Below are positions 7,075 through 50,656 of a stretch of DNA of 64,000 nucleotides, piece after piece (position 1 is the stretch's first letter; each line of letters opens with the position of its first letter). A model generated the notes under the pieces. The model was given only the letters and a program-made list of their open reading frames with translations. It had not been told where the DNA came from and made no database searches. The position numbers were made by a program, and so were the translations under genes. This DNA comes from Octopus vulgaris (taxonomy: Eukaryota). The DNA lies in contig OX597822.1 of assembly GCA_951406725.2 (NCBI GenBank), positions 39,494,001 through 39,558,000 of the forward strand, read 5' to 3'.

Positions 7075-7869
7075 TCTTCTTCTTCTTCTTCTTCTTCTTC
7101 TTCTTCTTCTTCTTCTTCTTCTTCTTCTTCTTCTTCTTCTTCTTCTTCTTCTTCTTCTTCTTCTTCTTCTTCTTCTTCTTTTTCCAGTCAGGACTCACGC
7201 CATTAGCCACAAAAAATAATCTCTCATTCGAGCTTACTCTAAGCTACTAAGAATGCGTGTGGAAACCTGAAGATCCACCTACCACACGCGATAGATTGGC
7301 GGTTGCACGGGCGTGAAAGATACGTTGTTATCCTCACTCCGTAAACGGAGGCTTTTAACGGGTGGAGAGCTGAACCATCCTAGGGTACAGAGGATTCGCA
7401 ATCTAGACTAGGGTCTGAAGGTTTACCACACCATAGTGGGTTACACCATGGTTCCTCTGCTATGTGGCAGAAGTAGGAAGAGTGGGAAAGTTGTGGTGAA
7501 AGAGTACAGCGGGGTTCACCACTACCTCCGCCGGAACCTCGTGGAGCTTAGGTGTTTTTGCTCAATAAACACTCACAATGCTCGGTCTGGGAATCGAAAC
7601 CGCGTTCTTACGACGCGCGTCCGCTGTCCTAACCACTGGGCCATTGCGCCTCCACTCCACAACTTTCCCACTCTTCCTACTTCTGCCACAAAGGAGAGGA
7701 ACCATGATGTAACCCACTATGGTGTGGTAAACTTTCAGACCCTAGTCTAGATTGAGAATCCTCTGTACCCTAGGATGGTTCAGCTCTCCACCCGTTAAAA
7801 GCCTCCGTTTACGGAATGAGGATAACAACGTAGCTTTCGCGCCCGTGCAACCGCCAGTCTATCGCGTGT
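7075..7869 (-). mobile_element. SINE family C with a (GAA)n tail and an inverted ~213-bp copy of its body upstream
   Basis: Arms 7284-7496 and 7657-7869 are near-identical inverted repeats enclosing the tRNA head (7497-7655). The (TTC)n run at 7075-7180 is the tail. Confidence 0.75.
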
Positions 7870-8476
7870 AGTTGCTGTTGAAGGCGAGGTAACTCTACTC
7901 TGGCCATCCCTGGAACAGTAACCACTGTTGTTGTAACCACAGCATCTATTTTACCTATTGTTTCTATTTCAAGTGCCTTCTAGTATTGCTGTTGTTGGTG
8001 CTGTCTACTGATCCATTCCCTTTTATCGTACCTTGAGGTGGTTTATACACCCACCTCTGTAGCAACTAGGCCTTTTTCTCAGTACCACCAATTTGCTTGG
8101 CTGATTTCTTCTACAATATGGTATATTTCCGGTTTCCGGATTAGTTTGTGTGTACGTGTATGTGTGTGTGTGTGTGGTGTGTGTGTGTGCGTCTGCATAT
8201 GTGCGCACGCGCATGCGTTTGTGTGTGTTTGTGCGTGTGTCTGCATGTGAGAATGCGCGTGTATGTCTTTGTGTGTACGCACGCGCGTTTGTTTGTTTGT
8301 GAGTGTGCGTATGTGTGTGTGTGTGTTTGCCTGTATGTGCGCGCACGCGCGCGTGTTTGTGTGTTTTCTGCAATGGAAGTGTTATCATTCAAAAAATTTA
8401 TTACGTGATATATAAAAAGTTTTCCAGGCAGAATGACCCATATTCATGTGTGCATATATATGTATGTATGTAAATG

Positions 8477-9158: not shown

Positions 9159-10420
9159 TTGGGTCATTCCTTAAATACTACTTTTTTTTTCAATTGCATG
9201 AACTAAAAGTCGGACGGGGAAGGTGTAAACTACCTGCATCAACTTGCTATAAAAGCAGGTAGTAATTTTACCTTGGGCTTATTCTTAGTGCAAGTTTTGA
9301 AGAGTGCCGATTTTAAGTTATTTTTTCAAAGCTATACTAGAAGTAACAAAGGAGAATATGCGGTATATTTTGCTTTATGAGTTCAATAAAGGCAACAATG
9401 CAATGGAAAGCGCGAGGAATATTAATGCAGTATATGGTGATTGGACAATAAGTGTAAGCCAGTGTTAACGGTGGTTCTAGAAATTCTCAGCTGGAAACTA
9501 CAGCCTAGAAGACGAGCCTCGTCCTGGAAGATCTGTAGAGCTCGACGAGGATGTCCTACAAATTCTGGTGGAACAAAATCCCATCGTAACTATTGGGGAA
9601 CTACCAGAGAAACTTGGATTTGGTCATTCAACCATTCATCGACACCTGCGCGCCATCGGAAAAGTTAGCAAATTGGGTCAATGGGTTCCTCACCAACTCT
9701 CCGAGTCTAATCGCGCGCAGAGAGTGAATGTGTGTTAGTCTTTGCTGTCACATCTCACGAATGAATCTTTTTTAGACCGCATAGTGACTGGTGATGAAAA
9801 ATGGGTTCTCCATAGAAATGTCAAGCGCCGAAGACTGTGGCTAGGGTAAGGAGAAACAGCGGCACCCCAGACTAAAGAAGGTGTTCACCCACGTAAGGTG
9901 TTGTTATCTGTTTGGTAGGATATGAAAGGTTTAGTCTACTTTGAACTCTTAAACCCAAACCAAACTATAACAAAGGAGGTCTATTGCTAGCAGCATGAGC
10001 GGCTTATGACAGCGCTCAAAGAAAAACGACCATCTTTGGTTTCAAAACGAAAGCTGTTTTTCCATCAGGATAATGCTCGGCCACATACAGTGAGGATGAC
10101 ATTCGAAAGGCTGGACAGTTTGAATGGGAAACGATGCAACATCCACCATATTCGTCGGACATTGTCCCATCTGATTATCATTTATTCTGCAGTCTTCAAA
10201 ATCATTTGGACGGAAAAGAATATGAATTCAGTAGACGAGGTCAGAACAGTAATGGAGGATTATTTTTCGTCACAGACAAGTGAATTTTGGGAAAGGGACC
10301 TTGCAAGTTTACCAGGTAGATGGAAGAGTATTGTAGAAAATGAAGGAGAGTATATTTTAGATTTAAAAAAAACTTTGTTTATCTTAATTTTGACTAATAA
10401 ATGAAGTATATAAAAAAATG
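9159..10420 (+). pseudogene. Tc1/mariner (mariner, D,D34D) transposon with a disrupted transposase (~9337-10365)
   Basis: Motifs EDEPRPGR, WVPHQL, IVTGDEKW, HQDNARPH and HPPYSSDIVPSDYHLF. Several stops and frameshifts. TA followed by TTGGGTCATTCC forms the left TIR. The right TIR was not found. Confidence 0.92.
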
Positions 10421-16682: not shown

Positions 16683-16772
16683 ATTTTAATCCAAACGGGA
16701 AACAAAAAAACAACAACAAGGGAACAATTACAGTATTATTATTAATAGGCGCTCAGGAAATGGAAGCAGGGA

Positions 16773-16810
16773 GGTATGACGTTTCGAGCGGAGCTCTTCG
16801 TCGGAAACAT
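16773..16810 (-). ncRNA. Minimal HHR-like motif (U4C core, weak stem I)
   Basis: ttt-CCGACGA-A-gagc-tcc-gctc-GAAA-CG-TC. Confidence 0.55.
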
Positions 16811-19696
16811 AAAGAAGGAAGAGAGAGGAAAGAAAGATCCCGGAGCGGGCAACGGAGATAGAGAAAAAAACGGCTGGTGTTAGCAGTAGCACATGGTGAA
16901 AGGCGGATGTTTACGATAACAAGAGCAAAGTGGGTTTTTAAAGGCAAAAGAGTGGAGACAAGGTTGGTAACGCAACAGATGTGTGTGTATGTGTGAGTGT
17001 GTGCGTGTGCGTGTGTGTATGTGTGTGTGTGAGGCGAGGTAAAAAAACAAAAAATATATGTATGTGTTAGTGTGTGCGTCTGTGTGTAGGCGTGTGAGGT
17101 AGGGCGAGACGGTGGTCAGCATAGCAGCAGCATAGCAGACAAAGGTCAGTAGTGAGAAAAGGGAGGAAGGAGGAAGGGAGGGAGGGGAAGGGGTGGGGGC
17201 GTATGTAGCGTGCCAGCGTGTGTTGAGTAGTAGTGTGTGTGTGTGTCCAGTGTCGTGGTAGTATTAGTGGCGAGTAGATTGAATGTGTGTAAGAGTGATG
17301 TATATGTTTAAGCAATGTGTGTATATGTGTGCGCGTGTGTGTAACGAAAAAAAAAGGGGGGGGGTTAGGAAAAGGACTCCAGCGGAGGGGAAGATGGAAG
17401 AGTGGTCCCGCGGAGACGGGCGTGGGAAAACCCAACGACAAGCGACATCCCAGGAACGGGCGGGAGGTCTCGTCGGGTCCAAGGGCGAGGTGCATGCGGG
17501 CGCATGCGTGCGCGAACCGGCCCAAACGCGTGTGTGCGCGAGCCTGCGAGTGTGCGCGTACGTATGTGTGCGTGTGGATGTGTGAGTGTGTCTGTGTGTA
17601 TGTCTGGGTGGCAGTGTGTCCGATGAATGTATGTGAGTATGTGTGTATATATGTGTGTGCATAGATGTATGTCCGTGTGTGTGTGTGTGTGTGTATGTGT
17701 GTATGAGTGTGTATGTATGTGCGTGTGGGTGTGGGGAAGTGTGTGTATGTGCATGTGTGTGCGCGAACATACAGGTGTGTGAGTGAGTGCGTGTGTGTGT
17801 ATGTATGTGTGAGTGTGTATGTATGTGTGTGTAGGATGCATGTATGTGTATGGGTGTATGTATGCGTGTGTGTATGTATGTATGTGTACGTGCGTGTGTG
17901 TGTGTGTATGCGTGTAGGTGTGCGCGTGTGCATGCGTGCATGTATGTGCGTATGTGTGTGTGTGTGCATGTGTGTGGGTATATATGTGTGTGCGTATATG
18001 TGTGTGTATGTGCGTACATGTGTGTGTGTGTGCATGTGTGTGTGTAGGTGTGTAGGCGTGTGTGTATAGGTGTATGTATGTAAGTATGTATGGGTGTGTC
18101 CGTGTATGTGTGTATGTATGTGTGTGTATGTAGCTGTGTGGGCGTGTGTATATGTGTGTGTATGTAGGTGTGTAGGCGTGTGTATATAGGTGTATGTATG
18201 TATGTCTGGGTGTGTCCGTGCATGTTTGTGTGTGTGTGTGTGTGCATGTGTATGTAGGTGTGTGTGTACGTGTGTAATGTATGTGTGTATGCGTGTGTAT
18301 GCGTGCGTGTGTGTATGTAGGTGCGTGTGTATGTGTGTGGGAGTGTAGGTGTGTGTGTGCGTGTGCGTGTTTATGTTGGTGTGTGCGTATGTGAGTGTGA
18401 GTGTATGAGTGTTTGTCATGCATGTGTGTGCGCGTGCAGGTGAGTGTGTGTGTAAGTATGTGTGTGTGTATGTTTGTGTGAGTGTGTATGTGTGTATGTC
18501 TGTGTGTATGTATGTGCGTATAGGAGTATGTAGGTATGTGTGTGTATGTATATGGGTGTATGTATGTGTGTGTGTGTGCATGTGTATAAGTATATGCGTG
18601 TGTGCGTATGTGTGTGTATGTGTATGTGTGTGTGTTTATGTATGTGTGTATGTATGTGTGTAGGTATGAGTGTGTAGATGTATCTATGTATGGGTGTGTG
18701 TCAGTGTGTGTTTGTGTGTGTGTAGGTAGATGTGTGTGTCTGAGTGAGGGTATGGCTGTGTAGGTGTGTGTGTGTATGAATGTAAGTGTGTGCGTATACA
18801 AGTGTAATGTATGTATGTGGGTGTGTGTGTGTGTGTGTATGTGTACGTGTGCGTGTGTATGTGTGTGTGTGTATGCGTGTGAGTGTGGGTGTATGGGTGT
18901 ATGTCTGTGTGTGTGTATGTCTGAAGTGGGTATGTGTGTGTATGTATGTATGTGTGTGTGTGTGCGGGTATGTGTGTGTGTGTATGTGTGTGTGTGAGTA
19001 GGTGTGCGTGTATGTATGTGGGTAGGGATGCATGCGAGTGTGTGGGTATGTATGCAAACATACGCAAGCGCACATCCGAAGCAAGCCCACACACACGAAG
19101 CGCGCTCACGCACACAACGCACAAGCAGTGCAACGCAAGCCCAAAGGGGCCGACCGAGCCCCCAGCGCGCGCCAAGGCGCGCGAGCGCAAAGGCCCTCGA
19201 ACGCCCCGCTACGCGGGAACCGAGGATCCATCAGCCAAAACCGGAAAGCAGAAAAGAGGGGGGCTGCCTGGATGCAAAAAGGTGTATGTGTGTGTGCATT
19301 CAGTGTACGGGTGTGCATGTGTGGGTATGTATGTATGTATGTGCCTACATGTATGTGTGCATGTGTGTGTGTGTGAGGTATGTACGTGCGGTGTGTGTGT
19401 GTGAGTGTGTGTGTATGTATGTGCGTATGTATGTGTGTGTGTATGTGTGTATGTATGTCTGTGTGTGTGTGTGTGTGTAAGTATGTATGCGTGTGTGTAT
19501 GTATGTGTGTGTGTATGTGCATGTGTGTCTGTAAGTGTGTGTGATTAAATGTGTGAATGTATGTACGTAGATGGGTCTACGTATGTGTGTGTGTGAACAG
19601 GCGTGTGGGAGGTAGGTAGGTGGGTGGGAGGTAGGTGGGTGGGTGTGTGTGGGTGGTGTGTCCGGAAAAAAAAAAAAAAAAAAAAAAAAAACGGTC

Positions 19697-20173
19697 TCAA
19701 GAGGAGGGGGCTGTGTTAAGTCCGTGTGGGGTGGTAGTTTGTAGGGTGAAGATGTAGCGTTGCTCCAAGTGGAGCCTGGAAAGTGGGCGACCATTGTGGG
19801 GGGCGAGACCAAACACTGAGATGTCATCTCGGGAATGGCCGGCCGAGCGGAAGTGGCGTGCGACGGGAGAAAAAGAGTGTAGGCGAACGTCCCTCAAGTG
19901 TTCAGTGAAACGGTCGGACAACCGGCGTCCCGTCTGACCTACATACAGCATCCCGCATAGGTTGCATTTAATGCAGTAAATAAGGCCAGACGAGGTGCAC
20001 GTAAAAGAGTGCCTAATGCGTACAGTATGCAGGTTGGAGCCGGTGACAGCGGTGGTGTTGGTGATGAAGGGGCAAGTGTTGCAGCGGGATCTAGAGCAAG
20101 GGAATGATCCGTGTGGGGCTGAGGGGGAAGGGGAGAGGGTGCTGTGGACCAGGAGGTCACGCAGATTGCGGGC
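19697..20173 (-). CDS. PLE GIY-YIG endonuclease domain with Cys-rich linker (5'-truncated, 158 uninterrupted codons)
   Basis: ARNLRDLLVHS...PCSRSRCNTCPFI...FTCTSSGLIYCIKCNLCGMLYVGQTGRRLSDRFTEH...VARHF...LEQRYIFTLQTTTPHGLN. Confidence 0.9.
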   Translation of the reverse strand, partial: ARNLRDLLVHSTLSPSPSAPHGSFPCSRSRCNTCPFITNTTAVTGSNLHTVRIRHSFTCTSSGLIYCIKCNLCGMLYVGQTGRRLSDRFTEHLRDVRLHSFSPVARHFRSAGHSRDDISVFGLAPHNGRPLSRLHLEQRYIFTLQTTTPHGLNTAPSS

Positions 20174-20192
20174 TATATATATATATATATAT

Positions 20193-20229
<37 letters not shown>

Positions 20230-20234
20230 CATAC

Positions 20235-20303
<69 letters not shown>

Positions 20304-20306
<3 letters not shown>

Positions 20307-20652
20307 CGGAGATGTACTTGCATAGCAAGTGATTTGATCTGAGAACGTGTGCTGAAACAAAAACAATTGCAACGTGGAAGGTGTTTGTAAGCCATTTAAG
20401 AAACACACAAAAGCCGTTCGATTCACTTCAACATTTAAGTTTAATTTGTCAAAATATTTTCGTCGCTTTAAGACCGCGACCTGTTCACTGACAAAAATCC
20501 GAGATGCAGCACGGATTTTTGTTAGCGAACAGGTCGCGGTCTTAAAGCGACGAAAATATTTTGACAAATTAAACTTAAATGTTGAAGTGAATCGAACGGC
20601 TTTTGTGTGTTTCTTAAATGACTTACAAACACCTTCCACGCTGAAATTGTTT
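20304..20652. mobile_element. Foldback PLE-type repeat between (TA)n runs
   Basis: Arms 20361-20501 and 20512-20652 are nearly identical around a 10-nt loop. A 57-bp extension is present on the left arm only. Confidence 0.85.
20445..20495 (-). ncRNA. Minimal HHR motif, G3-C8 core variant (mirror copy with U4C at 20518-20568, + strand)
   Basis: tttgtca-GTGAACA-G-gtcgc-ggtcttaaa-gcgac-GAAA-ATAT-TT-tgacaaa: 7-bp stem I, 5-bp stem II, palindromic AATATT in place of helix III. Confidence 0.75.
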
Positions 20653-20659
20653 ATTTATA

Positions 20660-20722
<63 letters not shown>

Positions 20723-20729
<7 letters not shown>

Positions 20730-21024
20730 ATCACGTGACCAACCAGACCATCAGATGTTGTTACACATCGCTGGTCACAATGCGTTCGCATTGTTTTAGC
20801 CTTCGAATGACGCCACCCCGCTGGCTAAGCGAGCAGGCCAACAGACGAAAGAGAGAAAGAGTGGTGAAAGAGTACAGCAGGGATCACCCCACCCTCCTGC
20901 CGGAGTCTCGTGGAGCTTTTAGGTGTTTTCGCTCAATAAACACTCACAACGCCCAGTCTGGGGATCGAAACCGCGATCCTGCGACCGCGAGTCCGCTGCC
21001 CTAACTACTGGGCCATTGCGCCTC

Positions 21025-21026
<2 letters not shown>
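20723..21026 (-). mobile_element. SINE family C (tail type 4, ending GGTCACGTGATCACGTGA at (TA)n)
   Basis: Family C head and body. Confidence 0.8.
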
Positions 21027-24884: not shown

Positions 24885-25380
24885 CTCAATAAGTATCCGA
24901 ACTGTTGCGATAGTAACGAAGCTAAAGCACGTAGAGTAAAACCGCTCGGCACAGATTGACCTCAAGCTCTGCTGTGCATGCGCACCAAGATTTAACACTC
25001 TAGCTCACTTCCTCTGTTTACAGCAGTGCTTCGAAAGAGCCTGTGTAGCGTGTGATCGTCGCATTGACTACCACAAAGTTGAGCAGAGAATCTGCGTCAA
25101 ATTTTGCTAAAAGCTTGGCGATACCAGCTCACAGGCCTACGTAAAGTTTTCAAAATTTTTTCATCGTTCTCGACACAGTCACGGAGATCTTGTGCGATTG
25201 AAACTCGAGTGTCTTCTTGGTCGGCTGAAAGCAATTTTGGCATAAACTTGGCAGACACGTGTCTCGTACACAAATCTTCAGTGATAATGGACTGAACTGA
25301 ACCGTAACTGTCCTGCACATCTGATAACTTACGGATATATATATCTACTGATGTTACCAACCCTCGCAATTTAGACACGA
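24885..25380. mobile_element. Rearranged mariner derivative
   Basis: The + strand has EQRICVKFC*KLG (transposase N-terminus). It is joined to a - strand segment SYGSVQSIITEDL...VSAKFMPKLLS. Confidence 0.7.
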
Positions 25381-25601
25381 CCGTTGTACTTCTATGCCAA
25401 GAGTGTATTTAAAAATATAAGAATTTGTTCATGTATTTTATGGGACCGTGAAAATGAGGAATCGATCCCTGAAAATATAGGTTTCTGAAAATACACAGGT
25501 CGATCTCACTTATTTGCTTCTTACAGAAAAATATAAGAATTTAGCTTCCGTCGAGGCAAAAACTCGTTTACTAAAAATATCACAAAGGTAAGTTCACGTT
25601 A

Positions 25602-27865: not shown

Positions 27866-28222
27866 ATACACACGTACGCACACACACACACAAAGAACAT
27901 ACATACATACACATGCGCAAGATGTTGTTTACTACTTGGATTTATGTCTCAGATACTATGTCTGTCTGTCTACTTGCTGTTGTTGTTGATGTTGTTATTT
28001 TTTCAGTTTAAGATGCGCTCTAATCGTGCAAACCGGTGGCTGTGTAGATAAGACGTCTAACTGCATCACCAGCAGCGCGTAGTTTCGAGTTCAGTCCCAT
28101 TGTGTGACACTTTGGCCGAATGTTTACTCCGCAGTGATCATTGCCTACATAATGAGGTTTCCGAAACGGAAAGCCTATAGGCGCAAGCGTGGTTGTCTGG
28201 TAAGAAGTTTGCTTCCCAACCA

Positions 28223-28847
28223 TGCTGCCAACAAAGCACGCGGAGTTCTGTTTTTGATTCGACGGTCATTCGGAATGCGCACAGCCGCCATATTCCTACC
28301 GCTCTATGTCACGCTGGTGAGACCCAGATTGGAGTACGGGATTCAAGCCTCTTCTCCTTACCTCCTCAAAGACATACTGCATCTCGAAAGAGTCCAGAAG
28401 CTGGCTACCCGCATCGTTCTTGGTCTCAAGAATTTGTCTTATGAAGAAAGGCTGAAGATGCTCGACCTTTATTCTCTAGAAAAACGACGACGCCGTGGTG
28501 ATCTCATTCTTGCTCACAACATCATAAGCGGAAAGTGTAACCTCTCGAAAGAGCTGTTCTTCACTCCTGCTCCAGAGCGTCGGCTGCGGGGTCACTCCGA
28601 AAAGCTCTATCTGCGACGATTTCATCTCAATCAAAAGAGAGGGGCTTTCTCCGCCCGGGTTGCGGATCCGTGGAATAAGCTACCGGACGAGATAGTGAAG
28701 ATGCCAACGACCGCTTGGTTCAAAGTCTCCCTTGACCACAAGTGGCCTGAACTCTTTACATGAACACCACCCTGTACATAACTCCATGTCCCCCTACATG
28801 GCCTTGCTTTTTGCTTTTTGAGCCAAAAAATTAACTAACTAACTAAC
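28223..28847 (+). mobile_element. CR1-group LINE 3' fragment with open frame and (TAAC)n tail, inserted in a family B SINE head
   Basis: LYVTLVRPRLEYG...LERVQKLATR...LSYEERL...SLEKRRRRGDLI...RGHSEKL...WNKLP. The SINE head is split at 28222/28848. Confidence 0.9.
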
Positions 28848-29488: not shown

Positions 29489-29521
29489 TTTGACGTTTCG
29501 AGCGTTGCTCTTCGTCGGAAA
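29489..29521 (-). ncRNA. Minimal HHR-like motif (U4C) in a pLTR-like repeat (~29385-29580)
   Basis: ttt-CCGACGA-A-gagc-aac-gctc-GAAA-CG-TC-aaa. Confidence 0.55.
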
Positions 29522-31883: not shown

Positions 31884-32161
31884 TACACAGACACATACAA
31901 AGATAAATTGATAGATACAACTGAGTGGGCAAACAAAAGTATGAGACAGCCTAGTGCTTTTTTATGTTGATAAGCCTAGTACTTATTCTATTAGTTTGTT
32001 CTTGTGAAACCAGTAACTTATGTGAATGTAAATAAATGAACACCAGTTGTGAAGCAATGATGAGGGTGAAACACAAAGACAAAGACACACACATACACTT
32101 ACATATATACATACATATATATATACGATTGATTTGTTTCAGTTCCTGTCTACGAAATCCA

Positions 32162-34869
32162 TATATATTGTTGTTGGCATCCTTTTTGTCTCGGGAGACA
32201 ATAGAGTTGCGCATAAAATAATCTAGTCCAGCTTTTACATTTCATGTCCAAATACATCTTCTGCTGTGGTTGTGTAGTCCTATCTTGGACGAACACTCCC
32301 TCTGGCAGGTGCCGCAAATGTAGCGAAGACTTTGCCTGGCTGGTTGTAATGTCATAGTTTCTTGACGATTTTTTTTTGTCTTTCCATTTCTCCTCTCTCT
32401 CTATGTCACTTCTTTGTGTTCCCTCTTTTACGGTACGTCGCCAATCTCCACGGTTGCTGGCAACTGCTTCCCAGTTGGTAATATTGATGTTGCAGGCATT
32501 CATGTCCCTTTTGCAAATGTCCTTGTATCGTAAGAACGGTCTTCCCACAGACCTAGTGCCCCTAGCAAGCTCTCCGTTGAGTATGTCAGGGATTCTGCCA
32601 TCTTCCATACGGCTAACATGTCGAAGCCATCTCATATATCTTTGTGTGAGGAGTGCAAACATGCTTGGTATTCCTGCTTGCTTGAGGACATCTTTCTTGG
32701 GGACATGATTCTGCCATTTGATGCGAAGGATTTTCCGGAGGCAGCGCAGGTGAAAGATATTTAGGCGACGCTCTTGGCGTGTGCATGGCGTCCAAGTCTC
32801 ACTTCCATACAGTAGAGTGCTAAGTACACATGCCTGGCAAATCTTCATTTTTGTGGTCTTGGTCAGCTTATTGTTGTCCCATGCCCGTTTGGAGAGTTGG
32901 GCTATCACAGCAGCTGCCTTGCCAATGCGTATATTGAGCTCAGCATCAAGGGATAGGTTGTAGGTGACAGTAGAGCCAAGATAGGTAAACTTCTCCACCT
33001 CCTGTAGTCTGTGCTCTCCAATATGTATGTTTGGGATGTCCGATGTAGCCTGACCCATGATGTTGGTCTTCTTGAGGCTGATAATTAAGCCAAAGTTGCC
33101 ACATGCTTGCTCAAAACAGTTGATGAGCCTTTGTAGGGCTTCTTCTGTGTGTGATACCAGAGCGGCATCATCAGCAAATAGCATCTCCTTGATCAGGACG
33201 TTTCTGATTTTGGTCTTGGCACGCAGACGCGAGAGATTGAACAGTTTCCCATCACTTCTACTGTGCAGAAACAATCCATCATCTGACGTCTGAACGGCAC
33301 GTGACAGCAGCAGCGAGAAGAAGATGACAAATAATGTAGGAGCAAGGATACAACCTTACTTTATCCCGATTTTTATTTGGAAGCCGGTTGATGTTGAACC
33401 ATTATGTTGTATGGTGCCTTGCATATCATCATGGAAAGATTTGATGATCCCCAGCAGCTTTGGTGGACATCCGAGTTTTTGGAGCAGGATGAAGAGGCCT
33501 TTTCTACTTACCAAGTCAAAGGCCAATCAATGAAGGCCATATATAATGGCATTTTCTGCTCTCTGGTCTTCTCCTGAAGTTGGCATATGGAGAATATCAT
33601 GTCAATAGTTGATCTGCTTCTTCTAAAGCCACACTGCGACTCAAGATAAATTCGAGAAGCAAGCAGTTGTAGTCTGGACAGGATAATGCGAGCAGAGGCC
33701 TTTCTAACAATGCTTAGAAGAGAAATTCCATGGTAATTGTTACAATCACCACGGTCTCCTTTGTTTTTGTAAAGCGTAATGATGTTAGCATCCCGCATAG
33801 CCTGAGGGACTGTACCCTCTTCCCAGCACTGACACAGAAGCTCATGAATGTGCCGAAGCAGGATGGTGTTTTTGCCGGTTTTTATGATCTCTAAGGGGAT
33901 GCCATCTTTTCCCGGAGCTAGGGAGTCAATAGACTTGGTGAGCTCTGCTATAGATGGCAGACTGTCAAGTTCACACATGACTGGCAAGATCTTGACACCC
34001 TCGATTGCAGCCTCAGCTACCGTGGTCTCTCGTGAGTACAGACCTGGTAGTACTCTACCCGTGTATCCATTTGCTTGCTTTGGTCCTTGATGAGATCCCC
34101 AGTAGTTGATTTCAGAGGAGCTGACTTGGTTGCGGATGGACCGAGGGCCTTCTTCAAACCGGCATACATTCCACGGGTGTCGCCACTGTCAGCAGCTGAC
34201 TTGATACTCTAACAGATTTCCTGCCAATACATATTTGCACAGCGTCTGGCAGACAGTTGGGTTTCATTTCTTGCCTTTCTGAATTCTTCGAGTGGCTTTG
34301 TAGAAGAATCACTCTTGTATTGCATCAGAGCTGCACGTTTTGCTTCGATAACTGTTTCCAGCTCTAAGAGCCCAGCACTGAACAAAATCTGGGTTTTGCC
34401 TTTCTCTCATGCCGAAAGTATCTATTGATGTCGTATACAAAGCTTCCCTGATATAATTCCACCTACTTTCAGCAGAGGTGGCTGGGCAGCTGCAGAGGGC
34501 AACCTTGATAGAAAGAGCAAAACATTGTCGCAGTGTAGGGTCTGAGGTTCTGCCAGTGTTAATGCGTATTTGACCCATTTTCTTGGAGTGATGGACTTTT
34601 TTAGGCAGAATCCTCATCCTGCTTCTTATTAGTGAATAATTTGTGTCACAATCCACGCTGTGGTAACTACGGGTCAGCTGAGCAGAATTCAGAAAGGATC
34701 TTCGTGTAATGATGAGATCCAGCTGATGCCAGTGGTGAGATCTTGGATGTCTCCAAGATGCCTTGTGGGATGTCTTGTTGGCAAAGAATGTGTTGGTGAC
34801 GCACGGGTTATGGTATGTGCAAAATTCAAGTAGTCTCTGACCATTGTCATTCATGTTGCCAATACCAAA
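32162..34869 (-). pseudogene. RTE (BovB-like) LINE, 5'-truncated, with disrupted APE-RT ORF and ~72-bp target-site duplication
   Basis: SWRHPRSHHWHQLD (APE), LYKNKGDRGDCNNYHGISLLS, ESQCGFR, EMLFADD (RT) and LLYGSETW. (CAA)n tail. Direct repeats at 32089-32161 and 34870-34940. Confidence 0.93.
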
Positions 34870-34940
34870 ACACATACACTTACATATATGCATACATATA
34901 TATACGATTGATTTGTTTCAGTTCCTGTCCACGAAATCCA

Positions 34941-45139: not shown

Positions 45140-45424
45140 TGGTTTCATGTTAAGAAAATATCTTAACCATCCTTCAAGCCAATCACACTAATTCTCATTG
45201 TTCAATATTTACGTGTGTGTGACCGCGTGTGTATAGTTGGCGATTTTTTTTCCTCCGTCTTCCCTTCCTTGGATCTTTCCTTTTCCTATGTTTCTGACGA
45301 AGAGCTCCGCTCGAAACGTTAAATCCTCCTTCTTTCTTTCCTTTCCTGAGCGTCCAATAATACTATACTTGTTCCACGTCCTCGCGTTGTTGTGTTTTCT
45401 CTTTGTGTTTTCATGTTTGGATTA

Positions 45425-48935: not shown

Positions 48936-49919
48936 CTCTACAAAGGGTTTAAAATTTTGCACTGATACAAATTTACTCAGGACAAGAAGTAACCTGCTTC
49001 CGACTTTATTTTACTTGACAAACGGTATGAACATTTAGGAAAGATGGAGAAACAAATCAACAGATTACAACAGAGAAAAGTAACGCTCAGTTCATCGCAA
49101 CAACATTTAGGTAAAAAAAAGAAAGGAAAACAACTCTGTATAGTTACTTATTGACAAAAATATACAAATTAGAGCGTATACCTTCAGACCAAGCAGAATA
49201 GTTTTTAAATAACATTTGATCGGATGTTATTTTTTGTGAGACATGCCCATAAGTTCGGAAACAGCTGAGTTATTTTTCGCTCGGAAACAGTAATCCAGCA
49301 ACACTCCACCGGGTACAAATCTTGAATTTATTATAAGAATTGGACTTCTACTGGGTAGTGAAATATAATGGACTTGGAAACTCTAGCAAACTGCAAGAAA
49401 CAAAAAGAATCTGAACGGGAAATTGGGTTGACATGGGGTAGGAGATTCTGATACAGATGAAACCTGAAGCACTAGACGAAATTCCTCACCTAATAGAGTG
49501 ATCCCAGGACAACAGTTGCAGGTAGTAGTGAAGGGTGGGAAGCCTCGATGCAACAACTGGGGAAACATCTCAAGTCTTCCTCTTCCCAACAGTAACAGAA
49601 AATAGAAAAGAAAAATGTCTCTACTACAACTAATACTACGACATCAATACCAACAACAAAAGCAGCAACCACAGATAGCTACAGCAACTGCAAGAGTAGC
49701 ATATGCAATTTCAGCAACAATGATTGCAGCACCAGCGACAAGACAGGAAGCAGTACCTACAGAAACAACGCCAAAAGTAGAAGCAACAGCAACAAATACA
49801 ACAGAAGATTCACCGCTACCAAAGGCTACTAGACGGAATAAGAATATAAGGGAATTATTAACCTCTATTTCTGACTCCAAGAAACGAACATTGGAGTATC
49901 TGCACGCTGTACCTTAAAG

Positions 49920-50656
49920 AACAGCCGCAAGAGAGGTAAGCCATGTTCATTGTGCAACAACATGAGTGAAGTGAATTCTATCAGAAATCATAATAGAAAT
50001 GCTACCGTTTATACAGAAGGTGGAACATGTAAAGATTCCCATTTGGTGTACACTGCAGAATGCACGAAACACAACTTGATTTATGTTGGTTGTACAACAG
50101 AACAATTAAACAAAAGGTTTAATGGACACAGATTCGACGTTAGGCACAATAACAGTAGTTCGACAGAACTTGCTAAACATTTCGTTTCAAGCGGCTGCAA
50201 TTTTGAAGAAGACTTGAAAGTGCATATTCTCAGAATCTGCTCCACTTTCATTTCTCAGAATGTATGAGGAGAAATATGTTTGCGGGTTATTAACATCACG
50301 CCCTGGAGGAATGAATAAGATAACAGGAGAATATCATCAAATTTATACAAAACTGTTTGATTAAATATTCTTTCCACTTTTTTTTTCTTTTCTTTCTTCT
50401 GCCGTCTTCTTTTTTCCTGTTTTTTTTTTTCTGTCTTTTTCTTTTCGGCTGTTATGAAATTGTAACTTAAAAACTGATGATGTCATTCCATCAACGTGTG
50501 GACGATGGTTGCTCTCGTTCATATTTTACGTTTAAATTTTTGTAATTTTGAATTTTTATCACTTCTTATTTTGAACTTGATAAGACAGACTTACTGTTGA
50601 AATATCGTTCAACCAATAAAATATCTTACAATCGAATCGCGCTCTTCGTCTTGACT
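49920..50656 (+). mobile_element. Penelope-like element 3' part: GIY-YIG remnant plus pLTR, ending at (ATC)n
   Basis: PCSLC...GTCKDSHLVYTAECTKHNLIYVGCT...LNKRFNGHRFD...LAKHF, then after a frameshift EEKYVCGLLTSRPGGMN. Confidence 0.85.
50566..50619 (+). ncRNA. Minimal HHR motif, U3-A8 core variant
   Basis: ttatt-ttgaac-TTGATAA-gacag-actta-ctgtt-GAAA-TA-TC-gttcaa-cc-aataa: 6+5-bp stem I, 5-bp stem II, ATAT palindrome, AUC site, followed by AATAAA. Confidence 0.78.

Follow-up and report, generated by a model that had tools for sequence, protein, structure and literature searches.

The palindrome at positions 20304..20652 of the window, by which we mean the whole 64-kb stretch of DNA analyzed here, carries a type I minimal hammerhead motif with a flipped G3-C8 pair, for which self-cleavage is predicted. 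This G3-C8 state is fixed across a high-copy repeat family. The best joint explanation, to which we give a probability of roughly 60%, is that the locus is the insertion of a Penelope-like element (PLE) pseudo-LTR (pLTR) into a (TA)n microsatellite and that its family carries a G3-C8 motif whose predicted cleavage is weak and dependent on a dimer or on protein. The palindrome contributes nothing new; the novelty is the unusual core fixed in a large family. The window is microsatellite-rich DNA of animal type, probably, to judge by its repeat features, from a cephalopod, and no further copy of the 20304-20652 repeat was found within it.

The intact motif lies in the left arm on the minus strand (20445..20495, read from 20495 to 20445). 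It consists of a 7-bp stem I, the core GUGAACA (G3 U4 G5 A6 A7 C8 A9, with G3 at 20488 and C8 at 20483), a single additional G (9a) ahead of a 5-bp stem II that contains G10.1-C11.1, and a 3' part made up of G12 A13 A14, a palindromic AAUAUU and U17; the cut is predicted between 20452 and 20451. For this arm the core, the two stem lengths and the palindromic AATATT are as the original prediction had described them. The right arm holds a decayed copy on the plus strand (20518..20568; G3 at 20525, C8 at 20530) in which U4 is replaced by C (20526) and a G-U pair stands in stem I (20523). G3 and C8 are thus retained in both arms, but comparison of the arms leaves GUGAACA in the left one only. At the positions defining the minimal type I core (U4 G5 A6, A9, G12 A13 A14, A15.1-U16.1 and H17) the left arm and the family conform and the right arm departs at U4. 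Stems I and II, G10.1-C11.1, an additional base after A9 and a palindromic helix III are all present. The Watson-Crick 3-8 pair is present in both arms as G3-C8; its identity is neither the canonical C3-G8 nor U3-A8, and we therefore file the motif as a hammerhead variant.

Evidence that the flipped pair belongs to the family comes from public sequencing runs. The stretch or part of it occurs in 20 of the 24 runs listed, from 11 studies, and four of the 24, under three organism labels, were compared over 20304-20530 at 80% likeness with a 3% threshold for variants. These four yielded 9606, 11181, 5811 and 1396 family contigs (contig depth is not taken as copy number, and a dip at 20352-20359 may be an indel) and together 33 variant rows over 31 positions at 3% or more. 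In none of the four does a variant of at least 3% fall in the 5' strand of stem I, in helix III or at any of positions 3-9, 9a, 12-14 and 17. It follows that G3-C8 is the family state rather than decay, and that the U4C change, which is not among the family variants of 3% or more, is private to the right arm. Polymorphisms of about 50% at 20333, 20387, 20413, 20419 and 20439 point to several lineages, all of them G3-C8, and the pair is kept through at least six lineage polymorphisms (~50:50 or 75:25) and the three organism labels. This fixation strengthens the original reading, a minimal hammerhead in which the G3-C8 pair is swapped, and that reading stands.

Within the motif, the only lineage-level change in a stem is at 20449, where U-A becomes U-G in stem I at 10-16%; the remaining variants are changes in loop II (one at 72-80%) and CpG transitions at 1-8%. 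Pair-breaking lineage variants fall at 0 of 41 constrained positions and at 8-10 of 148 positions elsewhere (Fisher p = 0.08-0.14, the value 0.08 coming from 10/148 and 0.10-0.14 once probable indel effects are merged), which is only suggestive of selection on the hammerhead fold. As for stem covariation among copies, the lack of which the original prediction had named among its grounds for refutation, the changes seen are one-sided ones that keep the pair, and no two-sided compensatory change appears in the single-site frequencies of 3% or more; that ground is thus partly borne out. The motif has suffered as much CpG decay as the sequence outside it, so that genomic copies decay neutrally. 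In run X11 CpG decay is 2.0%, against 3.9-6.1% in the other runs; because X11 is only a presumed RNA run, its coverage and low CpG decay were set aside as evidence of transcription.

Apart from its 3-8 pair the motif closely resembles the minimal hammerheads of PLE pLTRs (Cervera & de la Pena 2014, PMC4209133). These share with our motif a type I topology without a stable helix III, a base between 9 and 10.1, G10.1-C11.1, a palindromic 15.2-16.2, and flanks that are U-rich on the 5' side and AU-rich on the 3' side. They are reported as thousands of dispersed copies, and pairs on opposite strands 100-700 bp apart, as here, were already described among them. There are also differences: stem I is 7 bp here and 4-5 bp in the Schistosoma families, and a G at 9a is found in one of the 56 representatives of the same paper. 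None of the 56 representatives in its Fig. S3 starts with G3, a comparison that is partly circular since the published search fixed the core; the same fixed core applies to the 34 rows of File S2 in PMC8557442, none of which has G3.

Natural covariation of the 3-8 pair, in the literature as far as it was covered, takes the form of U3-A8 (PMC3088659, PMC4209133), and G3-C8 that of an engineered variant (PMC11167929; PMC8495972; PMC3884650). A natural G3-C8 family was not found in the literature searched, the Lunse et al. 2017 survey of PLE-associated variants lying outside that scope. As in the natural U3-A8 variants (Perreault et al. 2011, PMC3088659; Schistosoma Cercyon), a compensatory change keeps the 3-8 pair; U3-A8, however, requires two transitions that preserve the pyrimidine-purine order, whereas G3-C8 amounts to two transversions and places a pyrimidine at position 8. 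A close parallel is the C3G/G8C mutant of the anole Poseidon element PAc (Frangieh et al. 2024, PMC11167929), which has the same flipped pair. In that study the PLE hammerhead needed protein, either single mutant (C3G or G8C) was dead, and the double mutant partly restored cleavage. There the flipped pair is an engineered rescue, whereas here it is the natural state of a family.

How such a core might cut can be outlined from these precedents and from folding predictions. With the pair flipped, residues 3 and 8 would still form the tertiary Watson-Crick pair by which the 2'-OH of residue 8 is positioned, and helix III would arise through pairing between the AAUAUU palindromes of two motifs on the same strand (in tandem copies elsewhere, or in two RNAs). 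The left arm alone is predicted to form stem I (pair probability 0.89) and stem II (0.99). A G3-C8 variant was less active with C17 than with G17 (PMC3884650, as data not shown there), and by analogy U17 may be a tolerable compromise for a G3-C8 core. We therefore expect the family to show weak, assisted, dimer-dependent cleavage, by about two to one over a motif that is dead.

That second possibility keeps the same PLE-derived insertion and treats the G3-C8 motif as a relic, carried along when a drifted master copy was amplified, with cleavage unneeded for transposition. We consider it rather unlikely, although it is the most serious competitor. It draws on the anole element, for which cleavage was dispensable for PLE insertion in vitro, hammerhead mutants leaving insertion unaffected, and for which no RNA-seq reads ended at the cut site (PMC11167929). 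In our data the 5' ends of the family cluster 10-16 nt upstream of stem I and not at the predicted cut (24 of 828 rows listed), and the constraint test described above is not significant. The predicted energetics of the dimer are weak as well: the double-hammerhead fold (-25.4) gains almost nothing over a pair of open monomers (-24.8) and is outdone by a dimer without catalytic fold (-30.6), and G3 is predicted to mispair with U17 (p = 0.68). Against the relic, two changes that jointly keep the 3-8 pair, with the rest of the core and both stems intact, are more than it needs; an unconstrained 3-8 pair would be Watson-Crick about one time in four, and the persistence of G3-C8 through the lineages and organism labels also speaks against drift.

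A stronger version of the favored reading, namely that a natural, working G3-C8 hammerhead was the founding state of a young and very successful Penelope-type family present in several species, is one that we put forward tentatively, as possible but short of probable. If it is true, searches that fixed CUGANGA left a whole layer of such ribozymes invisible, and unseen ribozymes may exist even in Penelope clades that are described as hammerhead-free. Proof of the C3-G8 pair came from a laboratory swap, and a natural flipped family would be evolution's version of that experiment; the patterns with which hammerheads are searched and counted would have to be broadened. The family also offers a clean test of whether PLE hammerheads must cut, since either a weaker but working core was kept or a dead core spread.

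The palindrome that carries the motif has two unequal halves. Its left arm (20361..20501, minus strand) is an inverted copy of a short, pLTR-like repeat whose 5' end is 10 nt shorter than that of the right copy, and its right arm (20512..20652, plus strand) is a tail-less copy ending in an AT-rich/(TA)n run. Each arm is 141 bp long, the arms differ at 5 positions, and the 10-nt spacer between them (20502..20511, plus strand) corresponds to the additional 5' bases of the right copy, which places the true head-to-head junction at 20501/20502. A repeat search gave an alternative of 146-nt arms at 95% with zero gap, a call that arises because the spacer is partly self-complementary. The axis of the palindrome lies at 20506/20507, 11 nt from stem I, close to the ~10 nt first proposed, and the claim of a palindrome with 141-bp arms and a hammerhead in each is confirmed. 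Judged against the family variants, four of the five differences are private to the right arm, and both arms share the same allele at 20387, 20413, 20419, 20439 and 20470 (at 20470 the minority allele), which is what a common template in one insertion event would give.

The left copy continues about 55 nt beyond its arm, to 20304-20307, as a one-sided 3' extension (20304..20360, minus strand) that has (TA)n at its end and is missing from the right arm. We call it a tail by inference from PMC8557442 and PMC11167929. Both ends of the unit run into (TA)n: a (TA)n/(TACA)n microsatellite on the left (20174..20303, no strand assigned) and an AT-rich run with a (TA)n microsatellite on the right (20653..20723, likewise), probably the two halves of the target. 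Family contigs show AT-rich flanks before 20307 (42 contigs, run X2) and before 20366 (13 contigs), which indicates two 3' termini in the family; the long one terminates the left copy, and the right copy stops close to the short one. On the 5' side the family contigs run ~10-16 nt past stem I and then diverge (agreement 0.45-0.54), and loose ends behind 20496-20501 read first as the complement of the spacer letters and then become heterogeneous. Among the 15 joints listed (of 68), six connect opposite strands, all six from run X6; one side of each falls at 20481-20501, and the position of the other varies from 20369 to 20465. One of the 15 goes back. A 7-bp hairpin at 20315-20331 inside the tail, where the family has no variants of 3% or more, could mark a start signal for reverse transcription, comparable with the stem-loop described for the anole element.

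This anatomy fits an ordinary PLE insertion unit. Endonuclease-bearing PLEs are described as inserting into a (TA)n target with a one-sided tail and, at the 5' end, a second copy that is inverted and 5'-truncated (Craig et al. 2021, PMC8557442), and the 5'-5' head-to-head junction, the one-sided tail and the (TA)n target are the same at our locus; Penelope-13_HM in that paper likewise combines an inverted copy with a hammerhead on both strands. The locus differs in lacking any ORF sequence and in its tail of ~55 nt, against the 30-40 bp described there. PLE reverse transcription reportedly has two internal start sites, by which the tail is defined (PMC11167929). By this route a Penelope RT/GIY-YIG protein, acting in trans, would nick the AT-rich target; a short, uncleaved RNA would be copied from two start points close to each other, so that one end has a tail and the other lacks it, and the copy and its adjoining inverted copy would be made from one template. 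The two copies of the high-copy 200-nt repeat, meeting head to head within a (TA)n microsatellite, would then probably be a single insertion of a Penelope-like pseudo-LTR. Three other minimal-hammerhead families in the window likewise end 60-140 nt ahead of a microsatellite, and in one of these families a GIY-YIG remnant precedes the motif.

We found no RT or endonuclease ORF linked to the G3-C8 family, the 5' flanks of the contigs in the public runs being heterogeneous, and its membership among PLEs therefore rests on anatomy. Pattern scans gave three stem-less matches in the viral collection (where a further scan gave 0), one GC-rich chance match in metagenomes and 0 matches in prokaryote genomes, and the family motifs were not found in the supplement text of PMC8557442, in which line breaks could hide matches. 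A coding reading of the arm itself was rejected: a 65-codon open frame has no Pfam family and, as weaker evidence, no longer homolog among 15 candidates, and by hand count only 3 of 11 lineage variants fall at its third positions. Another frame, which begins with an ATG at 20395, stays open for 30 codons to the end of the element and could be the start of an ORF.

Could the repeat be something other than a PLE derivative, that is, a MITE, a fold-back or a SINE-like family with an accidental likeness to a hammerhead? The lack of a parent ORF, the resemblance of the unit to a long inverted repeat and the lack of an Rfam match lend this some color; we nevertheless think it improbable. When the 198-nt arm was shuffled 100,000 times with dinucleotides preserved, the motif never arose with stems of at least 7 and 5 bp; it arose eight times once the stems were relaxed and every Watson-Crick combination was allowed at 3-8 (a chance of at most 8e-5 per arm), and 22 times when the 3-8 rule was dropped as well. 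Relaxed matches numbered 0.013 per shuffled 64-kb window (150 shuffles). Although the descriptor was composed after the motif had been seen, it follows the published minimal-hammerhead consensus, and the hammerhead motif is beyond chance. The unequal arms, the tail on one of them and junctions that vary among copies are unlike the fixed terminal inverted repeats of a MITE or fold-back, a target duplication being unreadable inside (TA)n. At the gathering score Rfam reports no hammerhead in the whole 64-kb window; for 19500-21000 it gives 21 matches up to E = 10, again without a hammerhead and made up of microsatellite and hairpin noise. The gathering score likewise misses the C3-G8 and U3-A8 minimal motifs of the window, and the Rfam test is accordingly of low power.

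A family of non-LTR retrozymes was also considered. Metazoan retrozymes (PMC7229834; bioRxiv 10.64898/2026.07.22.740005) are, like the repeat here, short, non-coding and high-copy with a type I hammerhead, and both are probably moved by PLE proteins. Those reported in these sources form head-to-tail tandems with canonical hammerheads, whereas our unit is head-to-head with a minimal motif and only one of the 15 family joints listed goes back, and we rejected this assignment on that ground.

The idea that the palindrome is itself the functional unit, kept for dimeric cleavage by two hammerheads or for processing of both strands, gains from the near-completeness of the arms and from G3 and C8 in both, yet we judge it very improbable. 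The motifs lie on opposite strands, and the RNA read through either strand is predicted to collapse into one 141-bp hairpin (-234/-237 kcal/mol, with a stem II probability of ~4e-24), which would block cleavage of a dimer in cis. The right copy has its private U4C and is predicted to lose most of stem I (closing-pair probability 0.08, against 0.89 in the left arm), and elsewhere in the family there are junctions at which one arm is cut short ahead of the motif or inside it. The weight that the original prediction placed on the palindromic duplication is not upheld. We would expect no cleavage from the palindrome at 20304-20652, which on the insertion model would be a dead insertion whose read-through RNA is double-stranded. 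Least credible of all is an assembly or amplification artefact (a fold-back chimera): no listed contig spans the whole compared stretch and the opposite-strand joints listed come from one run, but the arms differ at 5 of 141 positions and end at two different family termini, and the junction is asymmetric.

Adjoining the same microsatellite, outside the unit, lies a 5'-truncated, C-terminal GIY-YIG endonuclease of Neptune-type PLE (19697..20170, minus strand). Its Pfam GIY-YIG match (E = 0.001) is under the Pfam cut-off; the product shares 44% identity with the C-terminal end of a protein that carries an RT, a CX4CXXC motif is present in the translation, and no viral relative was found among 14 candidates. 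As a parent for the G3-C8 family it was rejected: the order does not fit, and following its strand for 2.9 kb one reaches another hammerhead family. The fragment seems to belong to that C3-G8 family. After the fragment, on the same strand, comes ~2.9 kb of CA-rich microsatellite with GC-rich islands at ~19270-19060 and 17560-17360, then a decayed hammerhead of the C3-G8 family near 16803 and (TA)n, the stretch continuing to ~16680. The minus strand from 20170 to ~16680 may be a single PLE 3' end whose 3' UTR has been expanded by microsatellite. A GC skew at 16-20 kb is explained by this endonuclease fragment and CA-rich microsatellite stretch.

This second minimal-hammerhead family, with the canonical C3-G8, is represented in the window by a motif at 45294 (45290-45324, plus strand) and by decayed copies near 16800 (16770-16810, minus strand) and 29510 (29489-29521, minus strand); U4C occurs in two of the three copies. 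A U3-A8 minimal hammerhead at 50577 (50571-50612, plus strand) stands behind a GIY-YIG remnant (49875-50264, plus strand, Pfam E = 1.9e-5) and is followed by an (ATC)n repeat, with a CUGAUGA half-core near 50477. Another U3-A8 minimal hammerhead, at 375, lies within a unit at 342-507 whose last 27 nt recur inverted at its start, a head-to-head layout with a very short second arm. Elsewhere, a 216-bp inverted repeat (7281-7496 and 7657-7872, 95%), in which the descriptor found no hammerhead motif, surrounds a SINE-like repeat copy that recurs near 20851-21026. The window also contains open frames that look like broken remnants of RTE-type and CR1/L2-type LINEs and of a mariner transposase, at 32150-34917 (minus), 28083-28763 (minus), 9991-10404 (plus) and 25097-25408 (minus).
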